DNA from: a virus
Reading direction: 5' to 3' (one strand)
Virus genome (UHGV): UHGV-1794807
Length of the DNA: 10,961 nt
Each line of letters opens with the position of its first letter. The stretch's first letter is position 1. Under the pieces are notes generated by a model. The model did no database searches. It was not told the DNA's origin and was given only the letters and a program-made list of their open reading frames with translations. The position numbers and the translations under genes were made by a program. Positions 1-9,101 of this stretch are shown here, one piece after another.

Positions 1-61
1 AGTGCGCTGGGTTATCGCTCGCCACGGGAATATCTGCGGCAGCGGGCTTGTAATGGGTTAA

Positions 62-502
62 GTGATAACAGATGTCTGGAAATATAGGGGCAAATCCAGG
101 AACCCAGAAATACTTCCAGATCACTGGATGTATTACGCGATGCTTTTGTGTATCAGTTATGTTCTGAACAGGGTGATGGAGTTTATATTTCTGGCATCTT
201 CAGACAGATATAAAAAATATCTCAGTAAGAGAGATGAGGCTAAAGTAATTGTGGAGACTGAGCGCCTGTTCAATTCTCTGAGTATTCAGGAAAAAGAGGT
301 TTTAGCATTTGCTGTTATGGCAAATAACAAAATCGTACTTAAGCACGGCGATCCGGTCGCTTTATCTCTTATGAGAAAAGGCCTTCTCCATCGCTCAGGT
401 GTGACTTACAGCGCGTCAGGTAAAGAGAAATTTGTTATACCTGACGTCTGGTTCCATGAGTGTTATATGCGCTTTGCTGGTAAAGCTGATGAGCTAATTT
501 AG
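62..502 (+). CDS. Hypothetical protein convergent with N; one hydrophobic segment; occupies the position where lambda carries sieB (superinfection exclusion) but identity not established
   Basis: 146-codon ORF bounded by TAA at 59-61, GTG start at 62 (alternative in-frame ATG at 128); ends 22 bp before the stop of the leftward N-like gene. No motif recognised; synteny only. Confidence 0.45.
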   Translation: MITDVWKYRGKSRNPEILPDHWMYYAMLLCISYVLNRVMEFIFLASSDRYKKYLSKRDEAKVIVETERLFNSLSIQEKEVLAFAVMANNKIVLKHGDPVALSLMRKGLLHRSGVTYSASGKEKFVIPDVWFHECYMRFAGKADELI

Positions 503-1315: not shown

Positions 1316-1341
1316 AAAGAAAACCCGGCGCTGAGGCCGGG
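1316..1341 (-). terminator. Intrinsic terminator downstream of the ParA-like ATPase gene
   Basis: Perfect 6-bp GC stem CCCGGC/GCCGGG (1324-1329, 1336-1341) with 6-nt loop, followed on the minus strand by UUUUCUUU (plus 1316-1323); begins 7 nt after the gene stop. Confidence 0.65.
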
Positions 1342-1348
1342 TTCTTGC

Positions 1349-2392
1349 TTAAAGAATACTTGCCAGATACTTAAGTTGTCTTTGATATCGAGTAACCGAC
1401 TGGTTAACTTGTAACCTTTTCCCTTCACTTACTGTATGGAAGCGACCAACTTTTAGCTGTGATATTGGTATGCTTTCAGCCCCACTAATTTGCCCGCTTG
1501 ATACAAAATCATCTGTAACCACAATTGCTTTGCTAACATCTTCATCGGCAAAGAGATGACTGTATTTTTCAGCGATTTTTACAGCTCTCTCTATGTACAT
1601 TTGAGATGCGCGACCTGGTGTTGATGATTTACGGCTTTTTGAACCAGCCATTGTCATTACGATCGCTGCTACTTTTGGAGCCCCAAGCCCACCCGCACGC
1701 TCATTCCATAATACAAAATCTTTTGATTTATTTGCCAGCATTTCCATTGTGAGATGAAGTGACTCAATTGAGTGTTCATCTACGCGTACAGGGATAATCA
1801 ATGCCTCAGACGCGCACCATGCTAGGTGTGTTCCTCCAGCATAGAAGGGGCTTGTATCCATCAATAAAATTTCGCATTTTTTGTCTTTCGCTTCATCGTT
1901 CATTATTGCGCGAAGAGAATTTAATAGTGTTGATACTGCTTTTGGTTCTCCGCGAGATAGCGCTACTTGTAGTTGTTGATACATGCTTGATGGGAAAGCG
2001 AATAGCTCAGGATCACCTGGAATCGCATAACATGCCTTACCACCTTTAAAATCTGGGCAGAAATTACTTACTCGATATGAAATATCTTCTGGCTGCTCAC
2101 CAAAAGCTGGACCCAGCATTTTTGGTGTCAGTGCATTAGCTATTGTTACAACCGGTTTTTCACCACGCAATAGTGTCTCCGTTAAATTACATTGCGGGCA
2201 TAAGTCAGCCACTAATACGGAGTTACGTCGTGACAGCTCATAGGCGAGGTTGAATGTCATCGTGGACTTACCAACACCACCGCGCAGATTGGAAACTGCA
2301 TAACTTTTGAATTTTGGCCCGCCATCTACGACGTAACCTTCCTCAACAACTTGTGCATAGCGTGCCATTACTGACTCAACTACAGTGCTCAT
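1349..2392 (-). CDS. ParA/MinD-family (SIMIBI-class) P-loop ATPase, 347 aa, in the position of lambda rexA-rexB
   Basis: Deviant Walker A RGGVGKST (consensus KGGxGK[ST], first K replaced by R), ParA-like A' motif VLVADLCPQCN (compare ParA LIDLDPQGN), Walker B-like ILLMDTSP. Strong SD AAGGAGG 7 nt upstream of ATG. Flanked by terminators on both sides. Confidence 0.8.
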   Translation of the reverse strand: MSTVVESVMARYAQVVEEGYVVDGGPKFKSYAVSNLRGGVGKSTMTFNLAYELSRRNSVLVADLCPQCNLTETLLRGEKPVVTIANALTPKMLGPAFGEQPEDISYRVSNFCPDFKGGKACYAIPGDPELFAFPSSMYQQLQVALSRGEPKAVSTLLNSLRAIMNDEAKDKKCEILLMDTSPFYAGGTHLAWCASEALIIPVRVDEHSIESLHLTMEMLANKSKDFVLWNERAGGLGAPKVAAIVMTMAGSKSRKSSTPGRASQMYIERAVKIAEKYSHLFADEDVSKAIVVTDDFVSSGQISGAESIPISQLKVGRFHTVSEGKRLQVNQSVTRYQRQLKYLASIL

Positions 2393-2418
2393 ATGAATTC
2401 CTCCTTTAAATTTTGAAT

Positions 2419-2447
2419 ATTAAAGCACCACAATGATGCAGGAGCAA
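2419..2447 (-). promoter_or_regulatory. Candidate sigma70 promoter for the ATPase gene (TTGCTC-N17-TTTAAT)
   Basis: Minus-strand TTGCTC (plus 2442-2447), 17-nt spacer, TTTAAT (plus 2419-2424), about 27 nt upstream of the ATG. The -35 overlaps the first 19-bp repeat. Read by eye, not scored. Confidence 0.4.
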
Positions 2448-2520
2448 TAAAAAAGTGCAGGAGAATGTAAAATTAGCAGGTGAATTAAAAATGCGCAGGA
2501 GATGTGATGTTTTGCAGGTT
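2438..2520. repeat. Five tandem direct repeats, exact 19-bp period, conserved core GCAGGWG plus A/T-rich spacer
   Basis: GCAGG starts at 2438, 2457, 2476, 2495 and 2514. Units: GCAGGAGcaataaaaaagt, GCAGGAGaatgtaaaatta, GCAGGTGaattaaaaatgc, GCAGGAGatgtgatgtttt, GCAGGTTgactg. Lies 46-128 bp upstream of the ATPase start codon. Confidence 0.85.
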
Positions 2521-2616
2521 GACTGAACAAATGCTGATGTATACCTCGTTTGTAGATAGGTATGTTAATTGCTATATAACATGCTTATGTTATTGATATT
2601 TATATATATTAATCAT

Positions 2617-2643
2617 AAAAAAAGGCCGCACTTCTGTGCGACC
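2617..2643 (-). terminator. Intrinsic terminator immediately downstream of cI
   Basis: 8-bp stem GGUCGCAC/GUGCGGCC (one G-U pair), 4-nt loop, then a run of 7 U on the minus strand (plus A-run 2617-2623); starts 5 nt after the cI stop. Confidence 0.65.
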
Positions 2644-2648
2644 TTTCA

Positions 2649-3365
<717 letters not shown>

Positions 3366-3372
3366 TTAAATC

Positions 3373-3438
3373 TATCACCGCAAGGGATAAACTTCTAACA
3401 CCGTGCGTGTTGACTATTTTACCTCTAGCGGTGATAAT
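3373..3438. promoter_or_regulatory. OR3-OR2-OR1 operators with pR (rightward) and overlapping pRM (leftward)
   Basis: OR3 TATCACCGCAAGGGATA (3373-3389), OR2 TAACACCGTGCGTGTTG (3396-3412), OR1 TACCTCTAGCGGTGATA (3420-3436). pR -35 TTGACT (3410-3415) and -10 GATAAT (3433-3438). cro SD TAAGGAGGT at 3451-3459. Confidence 0.9.
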
Positions 3439-3462: not shown

Positions 3463-3663
3463 ATGGAACAACGCATAACCCTGAAAGATTATGCAATACG
3501 CTTTGGGCAAACCAAGACGGCTAAAGATCTCGGCGTATATCAAAGCGCGATTAACAAGGCCATTCATGCAGGCCGAAAGATTTTTTTAACTATAAACGCT
3601 GATGGAAGCGTTTATGCGGAAGAAATAAAGCCCTTCCCAAGTAACAAAAAAACAGCTGCATAA
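3463..3663 (+). CDS. cro: Cro repressor (lambda-type)
   Basis: 66 aa [41 protein letters not shown]..., near-identical to lambda Cro as recalled. Strong SD; first gene on the pR transcript. Confidence 0.95.
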
Positions 3664-3800: not shown

Positions 3801-4097
3801 ATGACACAAGCAAGTTACAGCAAGCCAACACAGCGAGAAATTGATCGCGCAGAAACTGATTTACTCATCAACCTGTCAACGCTTACCCAGCGTGGTCTGG
3901 CAAAGATGATTGGCTGTCATGAATCGAAGATAAGCAGAACGGACTGGAGATTTATTGCTTCGGTCTTGTGTGCTTTCGGAATGGCATCAGACATCAGTCC
4001 GATTAGCAGGGCTTTTAAGTATGCGCTTGATGAAATCACAAAGAAAAAATCCCCGGCCGCCACCGAGGATTTTAAGCAAATTGATATGCAATTCTGA
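3801..4097 (+). CDS. cII: cII-like transcriptional activator (non-lambda allele)
   Basis: 98 aa, same size and position as lambda cII (second gene after cro). Central segment is HTH-like and the C-terminal [18 protein letters not shown] resembles lambda cII KKRPAATERSEQIQMEF. Confidence 0.7.
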
Positions 4098-4276: not shown

Positions 4277-5168
4277 CATATCTAATCTAGCCGAAGCCAG
4301 AGAGGCCAGAAGGCTACAACAACCGCATCAAAGCAGCGGTAAGGGGTATGCCTTGCTGCACCGTAAAATTATGGATGTGCCGTTTTACAAGGACGCAGAA
4401 GCAGCGCATCTGTGGGTTCACTTAATCCTCAAAGCAAAGCATACGCCTGAGTATGTAATGACTGACGCAGGAGAAATTCTGGTAGGCAGAGGGAAGCTAC
4501 TTGGCGGTAGAAACTCTCTGGCGTTTGAAACAGGACTCAAACCAGATCGCGTTCAGTACCTGCTTAGAAAGTTCAAAAAACTCGGCATGATTGACTGGGT
4601 TTCACACGGTAAATTCTCAGTTTTCTCGGTAGAGAAATATGACGATTATCAGTCAAATTTTGTACCAGCAGATTACCAGCAAATTACCACCTCAAAGCCA
4701 GCAATACCAATGCCTGCAAGCAATACTGTACCAGCAGATTACCAGCAAATTACCACAGATAAAGAATATAATAATATTATCTCTAATACTGACGTATTAG
4801 AGAGTGCCACAGCAGACAAAAAGTCTGACAAGAAAAAACCTTCCGTCAGCTGTCAGGATGTTGTCGATGCTTACCACGAAATCCTTCCTGAAGCGCCAAG
4901 AATCCGCGCACTGAATGACAAGCGTAAAAACCAGATCCGAACGTTCTGGCGCAAAGCCGGAGTGATAACCCGCCAGCTTGACGGGCATGGGTTCACGATG
5001 CAGGACTGGAGAAATTATTTGAGCTACGTAGGCGAAAATTGCCGATGGATGTTCGAAGAACGCCCAAACCATCAACGCGGAACCGTCTGGCACAAAAAGG
5101 GATTTGATTTCCTGCTTAACGACAATACCTACCTGAAAGTTCGTGAGGGTGAACACGATGACCGATAA
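4269..5168 (+). CDS. Replication initiator, lambda O-like / P22 gp18-like origin-binding protein
   Basis: 299 aa directly upstream of and overlapping the DnaB-type helicase gene. Contains an internal iteron array plus AT-rich tract as in lambda O/ori. SD AAGGAG 7 nt before ATG. No sequence identity to lambda O was recognised; call is by architecture. Confidence 0.6.
4662..4790. repeat. Candidate replication origin: two identical 29-bp repeats (four ACCAGCARATT iterons) followed by an AT-rich tract
   Basis: GTACCAGCAGATTACCAGCAAATTACCAC occurs identically at 4662-4690 and 4728-4756; each holds two ACCAGCA[G/A]ATT half-repeats. Followed by agataaagaatataataatattatctctaatact (4757-4790). Encodes the duplicated peptide [10 protein letters not shown]. 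Confidence 0.7.
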
Positions 5169-7623
5169 TTTTTATGCGCCGCCCCATAGCATCGAGGCAG
5201 AGCAGGCGGTGATTGGTGGATTGCTTCTGGATGATGACAGCAGTGAGCGCGTCCAGAAAGTTCTGGCGATGCTGAAGCCTGATTCATTTTACAGCCGACC
5301 ACACAAAATCCTTTTCGAAGAAATAACCAGAATGCACCGGGAGCAAAAGCCAGTAGATGGCCTGACGCTTTTCGATGAACTGGAGCGTAAATCGTTAACG
5401 GCGTCTGTTGGCGGTTTTGCTTATATCTCTGAGATCGCAAAGAACACGCCAAGCGCAGCAAACATCGTTGCCTATGCAATGCAGGTTCGTGAAACCGCAA
5501 TGGAACGCTACGCCATCAACCGCATGACTGAAGCGACGGAATTGCTCTATTCCCGCAACGGAATGACTGCAACGCAGAAGTACGAAGCTATTCAGGCGAT
5601 TTTCACGCAACTGACAGATCATGCAAAAACCGGATCGCGTCGCGGCCTTCGTTCATTTGGTGAGGTCATGGAAGACTGGGTTAGCGACCTTGAGAAGCGA
5701 TTTGACCCGTCAGGCGAACAACGAGGAATGAGCACAGGGATCCCATCGCTGGACAGGATGCTGTCACCGAAAGGTCTGGTGAAAGGCTCTCTGTTTGTCA
5801 TTGGCGCTCGCCCTAAGATGGGGAAAGCGCAACCGCTTAATTCACGCATTTTGCTTGCTGATGGTTCATGGACAACATTTCGTGACGTATGTGTTGGAGA
5901 TTCCCTAGCATCAGTGGATGGACAACCATCATTCGTGTCTGGAGTTTTTCCTCAAGGGGAGCGAGATATTTACCGAGTTACGTTCTCTGACGGAAGAACC
6001 GTTGATTGCGCGGATGATCATTTGTGGGAAATTCATAGTAACCGTATTACCGGTGGCGTTGATGTTGTAGACACCTGCCGCCTACGGGACATGATGGAAT
6101 GCGTTCGCTATCAAAGCCGCATTCATGTTCCTGGTATTAGCGGTGACTTCGGATTGCCTGTTGATTTAGGGATTAGCCCATGGCTGTTAGGTGCGTTACT
6201 TGGCGATGGAAATCTTGCAGGTACGCCACGAATCAGCATGACGGAACCATACATCATTGAGCGAGTAAGATCTGAAGTGGGTGACGATATTGAAGTCAGA
6301 CATGTTTCTGGCTGCGATTACTCCCTATCTCACAAGTTTAGCCGCAAATTATCTCTTACGCGGGTTATGCAACGGATTGGTATCTACGGCCGGATGTCAG
6401 AGATTAAAATTATCCCGGATATTATTTTTTCTGCTGATAAGCAAACTCGTATTGATGTTCTATGCGGATTACTTGAAACCGATGGTTGGGTTGAAGGAAA
6501 TAATGCCCTGCGCTTTAGCTCGGCAAGCAAGTTCCTGTCAGATGGTGTAAAGCGGCTGGTGCATTCTCTTGGTGGCGTGTGTCGTATGACAACCAAACAG
6601 GAGCCGAAATTCAGTTATAAGGGAGAAATGCGCAAAGGTATGGATGCCCATATTTGCGCAATCAGGTTGCCTGATGAGGTTCTATCACACATAAAATCTC
6701 CACGCCTGAAGCAAAAATTCACTGCAAAACGCATCAAAACAAGTGCGCCTGTTATCACGTCGGTTGAGTATATTGGACGTGAAGAGTGCATTTGCATCAT
6801 GGTATCCCACGAGAGACATTTGTATGCAACTGACGGATACATTCTAACCCACAACACCACGCTATACAGCCAGATGGCAATCAACTGCGCAGTGTATGAG
6901 AAAAAGCCCGCTCTGATATTCAGCCTTGAAATGCCAGGTGATCAGATACTGGAAAAACTGGTAGGGCAGAAGTCTGGTGTTAACCCGAATATTTTTTACC
7001 TTCCGGCGACAAATGACGCCGATGACGGCTATCAGGGTGATTACGATGGTGACTTCAACAGGGCGATCGAAACAGCCAATCGCTTGAGTGAAATCGACAT
7101 GCTTTACATCGACGACACGCCGGGATTATCTCTGGCTCAAATCGTCAGCGAAAGCCGTCGAATCAAGCGAGAAAAAGGATGTGTTGGCATGATTCTGGTC
7201 GATTACCTGACACTAATGACCGCTGAGAAGGCCGATCGCAACGACCTTGCTTACGGCATGATCACCAAAGGACTGAAGAACCTTGCCAAAGAGCTTGATT
7301 GCGTTGTTGTGCTTCTGACGCAGCTTAACCGCGCACTGGAAAGCCGAACCAATAAACGCCCATTACCAAGTGACTCGCGCGATACAGGGCAGATTGAACA
7401 GGATTGCGATTATTGGGTGGGGATCCATCGTGAAGGTGCTTTTGATGACAGTGTTCCACCTGGTGAAACCGAACTAATCCTTCGTCTCAATCGTCATGGC
7501 AATACCGGCACGGTGTATTGCATTCAGGCAAATGGCGCTATTTATGACACAGACCAACAGTCTGCTGAAATGCGCCGCCGTGAACGCGAGGAGCCGCAGT
7601 CCAAGAAGAAAGGAGGATTCTGA
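5158..7623 (+). CDS. DnaB-family replicative helicase precursor interrupted by an intein
   Basis: N-terminus PPHSIEAEQAVIGGLLLDD...FYSRPHKILFEEI...GGFAYISEIAKNTPSAANIVAYA closely parallels E. coli DnaB. Walker A GARPKMGK is split from TTLYSQ...PALIFSLEMP by 343 aa. C-terminal motifs LTQLNRALESR and DSRDTGQIEQDCD are present. ATG at 5158 chosen over the track GTG at 5143 (GAGGG 8 nt upstream). Confidence 0.9.
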   Translation: MTDNFYAPPHSIEAEQAVIGGLLLDDDSSERVQKVLAMLKPDSFYSRPHKILFEEITRMHREQKPVDGLTLFDELERKSLTASVGGFAYISEIAKNTPSAANIVAYAMQVRETAMERYAINRMTEATELLYSRNGMTATQKYEAIQAIFTQLTDHAKTGSRRGLRSFGEVMEDWVSDLEKRFDPSGEQRGMSTGIPSLDRMLSPKGLVKGSLFVIGARPKMGKAQPLNSRILLADGSWTTFRDVCVGDSLASVDGQPSFVSGVFPQGERDIYRVTFSDGRTVDCADDHLWEIHSNRITGGVDVVDTCRLRDMMECVRYQSRIHVPGISGDFGLPVDLGISPWLLGALLGDGNLAGTPRISMTEPYIIERVRSEVGDDIEVRHVSGCDYSLSHKFSRKLSLTRVMQRIGIYGRMSEIKIIPDIIFSADKQTRIDVLCGLLETDGWVEGNNALRFSSASKFLSDGVKRLVHSLGGVCRMTTKQEPKFSYKGEMRKGMDAHICAIRLPDEVLSHIKSPRLKQKFTAKRIKTSAPVITSVEYIGREECICIMVSHERHLYATDGYILTHNTTLYSQMAINCAVYEKKPALIFSLEMPGDQILEKLVGQKSGVNPNIFYLPATNDADDGYQGDYDGDFNRAIETANRLSEIDMLYIDDTPGLSLAQIVSESRRIKREKGCVGMILVDYLTLMTAEKADRNDLAYGMITKGLKNLAKELDCVVVLLTQLNRALESRTNKRPLPSDSRDTGQIEQDCDYWVGIHREGAFDDSVPPGETELILRLNRHGNTGTVYCIQANGAIYDTDQQSAEMRRREREEPQSKKKGGF
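5827..6855 (+). mobile_element. Intein with LAGLIDADG homing-endonuclease domain, inserted in the helicase P-loop between GK and TT
   Basis: Removing 5827-6855 restores GARPKMGK-TT (E. coli DnaB ARPSMGKTT). Block A-like start AQPLNSRILLADGSW, two LAGLIDADG motifs LLGALLGDGNLAG (about 6178-6220) and LCGLLETDGWVEGN (about 6460-6500), C-terminal ILTHN followed by +1 Thr. Confidence 0.75.
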
Positions 7624-7927: not shown

Positions 7928-7937
7928 AGGAGTGAGC

Positions 7938-8174
7938 ATGAGCGACCTATCATTGACCCAGCCAAAGCTAAAAGAATGTCCGTTTTGCGGCGGTAATGCT
8001 CGTCTGTGGGTTGAGGCCGGAATAAATATTGATGTGTGGGGCTATGCAGAATGTGACCTCTGTGAAGCCAGGGGGGCATGGGCACCATCAGTTGCTGCGG
8101 CGGCTGAAAAATGGAACCGGAGAGCAGGAGATGAAGCAAACCTTTCTGCTTCGCAACGAAGCAATCAGAAATAA
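7938..8174 (+). CDS. Lar-family restriction-alleviation-like protein
   Basis: MSDLSLTQPKLKECPFCGG...WNRRA: small protein with the CPFCGG and WNRRA signatures I recall for the Lar family. ATG at 7938 preferred over track GTG at 7932 (AAGGAG 5 nt upstream). Confidence 0.55.
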   Translation: MSDLSLTQPKLKECPFCGGNARLWVEAGINIDVWGYAECDLCEARGAWAPSVAAAAEKWNRRAGDEANLSASQRSNQK

Positions 8175-8577
8175 CGCCATAGACGCCATTCTCTCACTAC
8201 CCATCGACGACAAGTCACCCCACGAAGTCCACGTTAAAGAACCCAAGCGCAGCAAAGCGCAGAATGACCGTATGTGGCCGATGCTGAACGATGTTTCGCG
8301 TCAGGTGCTATGGCATGGTCAACGGCTGGCACCGGAAGACTGGAAAGACCTGTTCACTGCCCTGTGGCTTAAGACCAAAAAACTGGAGCAAAGAAGTGTG
8401 CCTGGTATCGACGGTGGCGTTGTCATGCTTGGCGTGCGTACCAGCAAAATGCGAAAGGCCAGCATGACTGAGCTTATCGAAATCATGTTCTGGTTCGGCT
8501 CAGAGCGCAACGTGCGGTGGAGTGATGACTCCCGGCGAGAGTATGAATGGTCACAACGAAAAGGGAAGGCTGCATGA
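8131..8577 (+). CDS. ninB: NinB (Orf-family recombination mediator)
   Basis: From internal ATG 8131 (RBS GAGCAGGAG): MKQTFLLRNEAIRNNAIDA...DVSRQV.WHG...W...WSD, colinear with lambda NinB. The track ORF start at 8029 is an in-frame upstream extension. Confidence 0.85.
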   Translation: MKQTFLLRNEAIRNNAIDAILSLPIDDKSPHEVHVKEPKRSKAQNDRMWPMLNDVSRQVLWHGQRLAPEDWKDLFTALWLKTKKLEQRSVPGIDGGVVMLGVRTSKMRKASMTELIEIMFWFGSERNVRWSDDSRREYEWSQRKGKAA

Positions 8578-9101
8578 CTATCAAATCAAATACGCCAGCA
8601 CACGACAAGGACTGCTGGCAAACGCCGCTTTGGCTTTTTGATGCACTGGATATTGAGTTTGGATTCTGGCTGGATTCGGCAGCGAGCGACAAAAATGCTC
8701 TGTGTGCTCACTGGCTAACTGAGGCCGACGACGCGCTCAATTCTGAGTGGGTAAGCCACGGTGCAATCTGGAATAACCCACCGTACAGCAATATCAGGCC
8801 GTGGGTGGAAAAAGCCGCTGAGCAGTGCATACAACAGCGACAGACGGTAGTGATGCTTGTGCCAGAGGATATGTCAGTCGGATGGTTCAGCAAGGCTCTG
8901 GAGAGTGTCGACGAAGTTCGCATTATCACTGATGGACGGATTAATTTTATCGAACCATCGACAGGGCTGGAGAAGAAGGGAAACAGCAAAGGCTCAATGC
9001 TGCTGATTTGGCGACCGTTCATCAGTCATCGACGGATGTTTACTACCGTATCCAAAGCGGCATTGATGGCGATCGGGCAGGGCGTCAGGAGGGCGGCATG
9101 A
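8574..9101 (+). CDS. Phage Dam-like N6-adenine DNA methyltransferase (orphan, no cognate nuclease seen)
   Basis: N-terminal [18 protein letters not shown] and catalytic NPPY motif (WNNPPYSN), typical of the small phage N6-adenine MTase family. ATG 8574 overlaps the ninB stop (ATGA); alternative start at 8547. Confidence 0.7.

Follow-up and report, generated by a model that had tools for sequence, protein, structure and literature searches.

The cassette between cI and OL

The window analysed here is a 10,961-nucleotide (nt) stretch of the virus genome UHGV-1794807, and this report concerns a cassette at positions 1347-2647 of it in which the gene for a ParA-like protein is preceded by an array of short direct repeats (iterons). 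The cassette lies in an immunity region of the phage lambda type. An earlier note on this DNA, made from the letters alone, had described the cI, cro and operator/promoter surroundings as lambda-type and had placed a single ParA/MinD-like gene where lambda carries rexA and rexB. Both descriptions were borne out, as the flanks (cI, cro, pR and pL) have ~95% DNA identity to lambda, HK97, mEp234 and their relatives, and one open reading frame (ORF) at 1349-2392 replaces rexAB between cI and the terminator. The features of the cassette, from the terminator after cI to the terminator after the gene, are as follows.

2647-2620, minus strand: Rho-independent terminator after the cI stop codon, with a 12-base-pair (bp) stem, 6 GC pairs and a T run
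2521-2619, minus strand: AT-rich cassette-specific spacer, not homologous to lambda-type backbones and conserved in E. coli A41
2576-2593, in the spacer: perfect 7-bp inverted repeat, ATAACAT / 4 nt / ATGTTAT, kept in E. coli A41
2438-2520, minus strand: iteron array of five CCTGC cores (GCAGG at 2438, 2457, 2476, 2495 and 2514)
2447-2419, minus strand: candidate sigma-70 promoter, with -35 TTGCTC (2447-2442), a 17-nt spacer and -10 TTTAAT (2424-2419)
2408-2401, minus strand: Shine-Dalgarno sequence AAAGGAGG, 8 nt ahead of the ATG
1349-2392, minus strand: gene for a ParA/Soj-fold P-loop protein of 347 amino acids (aa), WP_021568301.1
1313-1346, minus strand: terminator 3' of the gene, AACCCGGCC-loop-GCCGGGTTTT, with the inverted repeat at 1322-1343

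In BLAST comparisons with lambda, HK97 and mEp234 the backbone homology stops at 1339-1346 and restarts at 2648-2653, so the DNA that is foreign to these backbones (window 1347-2647) is bounded by the stop codons of the ParA-like gene and of cI. A comparison of this interval with lambda 35825-37114 (rexAB) gave no DNA homology, and the encoded protein has a P-loop fold. The slot is occupied by rexB-rexA in lambda, by gp48-gp49 in HK97 and by hicAB plus one further gene in mEp234; across the lambda-type phages compared, the interval between cI and pL holds rexAB, hicAB, gp48/49 or the ParA-like cassette. A passage in PMC8585504 that cites Degnan et al. 2007 describes the cI-N interval as a mosaic hotspot for exclusion genes expressed in the lysogen, and window 1347-2647 would add a new type of occupant to this classic rexAB slot. 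The gene is present or absent between homologous phages with sharp junctions at the gene borders, as is expected of a moron, and the terminators on both sides together with these junctions support the layout of an insulated single-gene moron that had been suggested for it.

The terminator that had been expected after cI was found at 2647-2620 (minus strand). It belongs to the insert, is not present in lambda, HK97 or mEp234, and is predicted to insulate the cassette from pRM read-through. The terminator that had been expected after the gene is also present (1322-1343), and it is common to the lambda backbone, whose homology extends to 1339-1346; it is practically identical to the terminator that follows rexB in lambda. 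A near-identical AACCCGGCC-loop-GCCGGGTTTT hairpin trails the homologous gene in contexts of the Pantoea, Franconibacter and Rahnella types and even of the Pseudomonas type, and the stems CCCGGC/GCCGGG are identical in the lambda rexB terminator and in the terminators that travel with the cassette in other genera. Because the backbone homology reaches 1339-1346 and a near-identical hairpin accompanies the cassette elsewhere, the left junction would fall inside the shared terminator, which is likely the recombination site at the left joint. This suggests that terminators may act as recombination joints in the exchange of morons.

The Shine-Dalgarno sequence AAAGGAGG is, as had been noted, close to consensus and strong. 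The candidate promoter matches the consensus at 8 of 12 positions, which is under the threshold of the promoter scanner, and it overlaps the last iteron. Of the promoter and repeats that had been proposed ahead of the gene, the repeats stand, with an exact 19-bp period, and the promoter stays a consensus-level guess from which a transcript start near 2412 is predicted. Rfam families were looked for across the window, including the array region, and none was found.

The iteron array and its conservation with the gene

The array is the key feature of the cassette, although the earlier note gave the repeats only a passing mention. Its five cores are spaced at an exact period of 19 bp, which is also the period obtained with Tandem Repeats Finder, and the three-copy pattern gave 3 matches against 0.00 expected from 200 shuffles. 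A second such array was sought in the 41 kb of a near-identical prophage and none was found, so that the array is unique there, and among the E. coli copies compared the cores are unchanged and the spacers carry substitutions. We propose that the array at 2438-2520 is the operator for the cassette's own protein. In the window the TTG-type -35 (2447-2442, with the -10 at 2424-2419) abuts an iteron, so a protein sitting on the repeats would be expected to cover the promoter.

The same CCTGC repeats were found upstream of four distant homologues whose DNA was read directly. In a wider set of 98 homologous loci, which represent eight or more phyla and span Proteobacteria to Actinobacteria and Firmicutes, 93 have at least four coding-strand copies of CCTGC in the 250 nt upstream of the gene, and 63 loci have no opposite-strand copy upstream. 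Successive copies are separated by 19 bp (305 cases), 9 bp (124), 28 bp (21) or 38 bp (8), and the arrays have the consensus C-(A/T)-CCTGC-A, after which comes a T-rich stretch. Many loci have a TTG-type -35 abutting an iteron and a -10-like hexamer 16-18 nt further on; of the 89 distinct sequences upstream of homologues, 38 have the strict TTGnnCCTGC layout. When the ORFs within 4 kb were clustered for 48 loci, the clusters comprised the gene and shadow ORFs within it, plus an IS1-family transposase at 16 loci and, at 11, a small basic ORF, and the gene for the ParA-like protein is the sole gene that is always linked to the array. The motif is shared by organisms as distant as E. coli, Mycobacterium and Peptococcaceae, and whatever recognises it must have moved along with it, which leaves the ParA-like protein as the sole candidate.

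A change in the repeats is accompanied by a change in the protein in one subclade. In Rhizobium/Allorhizobium (50-53% identity) the repeats are C-N-CAC on a 19-bp lattice located about 150 nt upstream of the gene, and this subclade alone has Gln328Glu and Asn330Tyr, which turn the otherwise invariant RLQVNxSVTRYQ into RLEVYEANKKYR. The coincidence of a repeat change with a C-terminal residue change supports the reading of the repeats by the ParA-like protein. Further members of the altered-repeat subclade were sought in a metagenome scan that gave 3 usable loci, all with CCTGCA, and the covariation thus stays a single event.

Fold and active site of the protein

The 347-aa protein matches Pfam AAA_31 (2.8e-13) and CbiA (1.4e-9) as well as PHROG 164, 'ParA-like partition protein' (1.8e-42). 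Its score against the NCBIfam model ParA_partition (NF041546) is 36.7 bits, compared with a curated cut-off of 180, and it is far under every NCBIfam cut-off. The sole match in PADLOC-DB 2.0 (5027 models) is to PDC-M28B, with an E-value of 0.0011 over 36 P-loop residues. An alignment-based AlphaFold2 model is confident, with a predicted local distance difference test score (pLDDT) of 89.5 and a predicted template-modelling score (pTM) of 0.90, and Foldseek relates it with probability 1.00 to McdA, Soj, ParA, MinD and NifH. The top matches are McdA (6non), Soj (2bek and 1wcv), H. pylori Soj and ParA (8ray), with a template-modelling score for the target of ~0.75, and the matches also include Soj 6iub, the uncharacterised DIP2308 (3pg5), pNOB8 ParA and pSM19035 delta (2oze). 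On the model, the protein has the ParA/Soj/MinD fold over its whole length, with inserts. The profile and structure searches that had been suggested thus agree on a ParA/Soj fold (AAA_31, PHROG 164, Foldseek). The C-terminal extension of roughly 130 aa that had been described does not hold, because in the alignment the last third of the chain corresponds to the usual end of a ParA fold plus inserts. A separate C-terminal DNA-binding domain is not supported, as the model and Foldseek give one fold. At the other end, the P-loop starts at residue 37 and is preceded by a lone helix at residues 4-18, leaving no N-terminal winged helix-turn-helix (HTH) of ~100 aa.

The Walker A motif RGGVGKST and the A' motif ADLCPQCN, both named in the earlier note, were confirmed in the ORF, where they span residues 36-44 (as LRGGVGKST) and 62-69, respectively. 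Arg37 occupies the position of the signature Lys, as it does throughout the 81 distinct sequences of the family; the P-loop lysine, Lys42, is retained. The Lys to Arg replacement that had been pointed out is therefore real and, since Arg37 is invariant, it is not a lesion. A second replacement had been overlooked: Cys65 stands at the position of the catalytic Asp of Walker A' (DLCPQ instead of DxDPQ), again in all 81 distinct sequences, and in the profile alignment it pairs with Asp44 of Soj (1wcv), the residue that is mutated to Ala in the ATP-trap structure 2bek. The Walker B motif is LMDTSP, with Asp179 invariant. In ParA proteins this catalytic Asp activates water, and mutants that lack it are hydrolysis-deficient ATP-bound dimers (PMC8684754). 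Because the signature Lys and the water-activating Asp are both invariantly replaced, the family would be expected to act as a nucleotide switch that hydrolyses slowly or not at all.

In a wider clade of ParA-like proteins, 340-370 aa long and unannotated, the motif NNKGGVGKS retains the signature Lys and is combined with DLCPQAN. None of these wider-clade proteins has a significant match among the PADLOC models or reaches an NCBIfam cut-off. The Cys would be older than the Arg, because the wider clade has KGG and yet DLCPQ. DIP2308 (PDB 3pg5) was considered as a solved relative and was ruled out, as it retains KGG and the Asp.

Arrays without the gene

IMG/VR was scanned for four CCTGC at exact 19-bp spacing, for which ~0.1 chance matches are expected by our own estimate, and at least 120 array loci were found. 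Among the array matches listed, 21-22 precede a ParA-like gene, 17 are plain period-19 satellites, 11 are at contig ends, and ~50 are arrays of the same grammar without a ParA-like gene nearby. At these orphan arrays an ORF on the opposite strand begins at the last iteron. In P. aeruginosa JBD44-type phages this ORF is gp44, an o-spanin-like lipoprotein gene that comes after the endolysin and gp43, and in Klebsiella phages the orphan array lies in genes of the nin/ea region, for example 'EaA' of Klebsiella phage 2 LV-2017. The divergent transposase ORFs linked to IS1 have the same overlap of their 5' end with the array as the orphan-array ORFs.

In diverged orphan members the iteron cores are fixed and the spacers diverge, and the encoded peptides keep just LQ, AG, CR and QV, which are GCAGG read in three frames (19 = 18 + 1). 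Selection would thus act on the DNA and not on the peptide, because only the cores stay fixed and the conserved residues just reflect GCAGG. The contigs with orphan arrays differ from those that carry the gene. The Klebsiella orphan-array sequence was sought in 5426 E. coli genomes and is absent. Orphan arrays could be trans targets, decoys, recombination boundaries or the sites of another factor.

Family size, distribution and genomic context

A word-indexed search returned 998 relatives, of which the best 120 are 342-380 aa long, have 62-100% identity to the query and come from organisms as varied as Enterobacterales, Sorangium and Verrucomicrobia. When 1.84 billion cluster representatives were searched with a profile, just 57 matches fell below 1e-30, and for full-length proteins the E-values fall sharply, from ~1e-60 to 1e-17. 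The family is compact and well separated, as the small number of matches below 1e-30 and the sharp drop in E-value indicate. Locus scans gave 64 genomic and 48 viral loci, which include Actinobacteria, Acidobacteria, Planctomycetes, Bacteroidota, Chlorobi and one Firmicute, and a distance tree has partial taxonomic coherence, with an Actinobacteria group and an Enterobacterales group.

The cassette is present in 5 of 5426 complete E. coli genomes, 618 of which have a full-length lambda-type cI. All five copies are chromosomal and in integrated lambdoid prophages. The three that were inspected are in different lambdoid backbones, with differing replication and early-left genes and two integration regions, and they encode the identical protein WP_021568301.1 from genes that differ by 1-4 nt, all at third codon positions. 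An identical protein with synonymous changes only points to strong purifying selection on the protein. INPHARED phage records were searched at the DNA level and none has the E. coli cassette.

Prophage copies adjoin a repressor gene strikingly often: the 128 ORFs flanking 32 viral loci include 15 Peptidase_S24, 17 HTH_3 and 4 Cro-like ORFs, with repressor-adjacent examples in Sodalis, P. chlororaphis and Chromobacterium. Other copies lie between the integrase and tail genes (Franconibacter, Cupriavidus), and in the isolated P2-like Ralstonia phage RsoM1USA the gene is directly past attP; in the paper of its authors the gene is merely named a ParA family protein. These positions are typical accessory-gene sites. 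The earlier note had seen no ParB-like partner gene, and this extends beyond the window, since a ParB-like gene was sought in the window and in 41 kb of the near-identical prophage without a match and no second gene is conserved among 48 loci.

Outside phages the commonest neighbour is an IS1-type transposase, which accounts for 10 of 150 ORFs at 38 non-viral loci. At 16 of 48 genome loci, drawn from at least five phyla, the array adjoins the gene for an IS1-family DDE transposase of 300-340 aa. This gene may be divergent, its 5' end then overlapping the iterons, or it follows downstream with the same orientation, in the same operon. At 11 loci the transposase is accompanied by a basic ORF of 75-85 aa (KNPAAVALGRLGG...ARW). 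Terminal inverted repeats around the transposase and the ParA-like gene were sought and none was found; two loci have possible weak inverted repeats of 12-15 bp around the transposase alone. The defence models PD-Lambda-1, PDC-S13 and HEC-09 were each matched once among the same 150 neighbour ORFs, along with a few methylases.

Flanking features of the window

The flanks of the cassette contain the following lambda-type features.

524-955: N gene (window annotation)
1134-1106, minus strand: pL within OL (TTGACA, 17 nt, GATACT), in the flank outside the cassette and homologous to lambda OL
2649-3362, minus strand: lambda-type cI repressor gene, in the flank outside the cassette
3410-3438: pR
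3463-3663, plus strand: cro
3801-4097: cII gene

The left end of the window (1-97) is the end of an IS2 copy, with the C-terminus of an IS3-family transposase and a terminal repeat. It is abutted by a sieB-like superinfection-exclusion ORF (62-502), and IS2 seems to have removed the 5' end of sieB, because the Pfam match starts only at profile position 28. A segment of the LAGLIDADG homing-endonuclease type interrupts the DnaB-type replicative helicase gene at 5143-7623 (826 aa) and is suggestive of an intein; in the near-identical prophage of NZ_LR883012 the DnaB gene is continuous, at 1437 nt. The nin region contains a Lar-type restriction-alleviation gene at 7932-8174, and a Dam-type N6-adenine methyltransferase gene is found at 8547-9101.

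Proposed mechanism and alternative explanations

We hold with moderate confidence that the cassette is a mobile one-gene moron whose product is an ATP-switched DNA binder, is autorepressed through the iterons and probably functions against other elements. A self-contained and horizontally mobile cassette would have replaced rexA-rexB in a lambda-immunity prophage. Its protein would bind ATP, which like the fold is well supported, and it would also form a nucleotide-sandwich dimer and bind DNA; with Arg37 and Cys65 in place, it would work as a nucleotide switch with slow hydrolysis or none rather than as a ParB-driven partition motor. It would recognise same-orientation CCTGC iterons on a 19/9-bp lattice across its own promoter, and this binding would repress the promoter and result in steady, host-independent expression in the lysogen, insulated from cI. 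We infer iteron binding and autoregulation from co-conservation, the position of the array on the promoter and one covariation event. The benefit to the prophage would probably be a DNA-directed function against other elements, to which the position of the cassette and the orphan arrays point, and where other temperate phages, which do not have the gene, carry an array at the 5' end of one of their genes, that array would be a candidate trans target. A role in excluding other phages is plausible.

Several observations count against this interpretation. No DNA-binding domain is identifiable in a plain ParA fold with inserts, and direct repeats are an unusual substrate for a ParA dimer with two-fold symmetry. 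The overlap of -35 and iteron is found in just 38 of 89 upstream regions and the promoter of the window is weak (8/12). The covariation comprises one lineage with two loci, and a closer metagenome relative still has CCTGCA. The effect of Cys65 on hydrolysis is a guess, because the Cys also occurs in the clade with the signature Lys. Orphan arrays might reflect another factor that binds the repeats, the association with defence islands is weak, and a defence gene would not normally be as conserved as ~60% identity between phyla.

In a bolder version, which we consider unlikely, the cassette is a weapon between phages: an ATP-locked protein would nucleate on CCTGC arrays and spread or act as a roadblock, its own array would provide feedback and perhaps self-immunity by titration, and the orphan arrays would be the targets. 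These targets may be the starts of the JBD44-type o-spanin gene and of the Klebsiella nin/ea-region genes. If this were true, it would amount to a new type of defence in which a ParA-family protein, guided by operators, silences genes, and the retention of DNA repeats inside unrelated coding regions would be explained.

Five rivals to the proposed moron are, in order of weight, a tether, an abortive-infection protein, a transposon accessory, a host-directed factor and an ordinary partition protein. Loci of the parC/parH type have direct repeats that span the promoter upstream of the ParA gene. The same architecture here would suit a one-protein tether or partition module, in which the array is a centromere and the protein, by attaching to this array as well as to the nucleoid, retains an excised or unintegrated element in dividing cells; such a module would resemble a type Ib/II par locus, with the centromere upstream of the ATPase gene, minus the centromere-binding protein. 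By its sequence the phased array could be a centromere or just an operator. The occurrence of the module on varied integrative elements (prophages and transposase-linked loci) and its high conservation across phyla, to which a DNA-only, host-independent mechanism is suited, both fit. We nevertheless think its chance small, since all E. coli copies are in integrated lambdoid prophages that need no partition, the loss of the catalytic Asp and the lack of a ParB-like activator disfavour a hydrolysis-driven ratchet, and the position next to a repressor is typical of accessory genes expressed in the lysogen. That position, which is the slot of rexAB, hicAB and BstA-type genes, the moron layout, the nearby sieB and the copies in other prophage accessory spots would all fit a conventional single-gene abortive-infection or exclusion protein that would respond to a phage product by killing the cell or halting its growth, with the repeats as no more than a promoter feature. 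This is doubtful for a protein that is entirely a ParA fold with no effector domain, that has no match among 5027 PADLOC models beyond the P-loop, and that has few defence neighbours and evolves very slowly in sequence, and it leaves the cross-phylum conservation of the array and its orphan occurrence unexplained.

The transposase next to the array in 16 of 48 loci, often with the small basic ORF, and the overlap of transposase N-termini with the array raise the prospect of an accessory of an IS1-family transposon, either a regulator or an ATP-dependent target selector similar to MuB or TnsC, with the prophage copies as captured passengers. The window and all prophage copies have no transposase and are yet under strong purifying selection, and no terminal inverted repeats around both genes were found, which makes such an origin quite improbable. 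Orphan relatives of ParA and MinD commonly act on cargo other than DNA. McdA is one example (PMC8684754), and the high conservation could mirror a conserved host target if the protein were a lysogenic-conversion factor acting on a host structure in the manner of MinD, MipZ or FlhG, with the repeats serving only feedback control. This has a slim chance at best, given that neither a membrane-targeting helix nor a partner is evident, that a spread from Firmicutes to Bacteroidota would demand a universal target, and that the orphan arrays are left unexplained. The automatic annotations 'ParA family protein' and 'chromosome partitioning protein' would imply an ordinary partition ParA with its ParB and centromere elsewhere in the element. 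A canonical partition ParA with a partner is the sole rival that is effectively excluded, as the 41-kb prophage has no ParB, 48 loci have no conserved second gene, the score of 36.7 bits is far under 180, two catalytic signatures are replaced and the element is integrated.

Prophage genes annotated as 'ParA family protein' are routinely dismissed as partition leftovers. The family described here is tight and highly conserved in many phyla; it has no partner, its ATP site is rewired and a repeat array of its own goes with it. Should the protein read the iterons, the cassette would be a minimal portable module of protein and operator that works in very different hosts, as well as a useful model of how sequence specificity can arise in ParA-type switches that have no added domain. 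If the orphan arrays are targets, they would indicate a new route by which prophages interfere with rivals.

Comparison with known systems

Full-text literature was searched for ParA-like prophage, defence and exclusion proteins, WP_021568301.1, the signature lysine and RsoM1USA, and no description of the family, the array or the active site was found; the large defence screens checked by term contain no mention of ParA. The type Ib/II par loci (R1 parC-parMR, TP228 parH-parFG and pSM19035 delta/omega) are similar in having helix-phased direct repeats over the promoter upstream of the gene for a nucleoside triphosphatase (NTPase), which is a small ParA-type protein without an N-terminal HTH, and delta (2oze) is among the fold matches. 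The cassette differs from them in having no ParR, ParG or omega gene, in lying in an integrated prophage, and in the replacement of the signature Lys and the catalytic Asp. F SopA/ParA and P1 ParA (type Ia) bind short repeated motifs in their own promoter in a nucleotide-switched manner through an N-terminal winged HTH (PMC8465637), and the cassette protein would be similar if iteron binding holds. Type Ia ParA has an extra winged-HTH region of ~100 aa and recognises inverted-repeat pairs ~28 bp apart, whereas the cassette protein has only 30 residues before the P-loop and the array consists of direct 19/9-bp repeats; P1 ParA (3ez2) is also a poorer structural match in Foldseek.

The best Foldseek match is McdA (6non), which has Ser at the position of the signature Lys, a compensating distal Lys151 and the catalytic Asp, and works with McdB on carboxysomes (PMC8684754); the cassette protein has Arg instead of the Ser, Cys instead of the Asp, and no partner. 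The slot downstream of the prophage repressor is shared with lambda rexAB and with BstA-aba, in which a DNA-binding protein is paired with a cognate cis DNA element (PMC8585504). There is no relation in sequence or fold to these genes, and they share the repressor transcript, whereas the cassette gene is insulated by a terminator. The ATP-trap mutants of Soj (D44A) and ParA are similar in that the residue equivalent to Soj Asp44 is non-acidic in the cassette protein, where the change is natural, to Cys, and invariant. By kind, the cassette is a ParA-family NTPase with an iteron control region, and the orphan arrays leave room for something more unusual.

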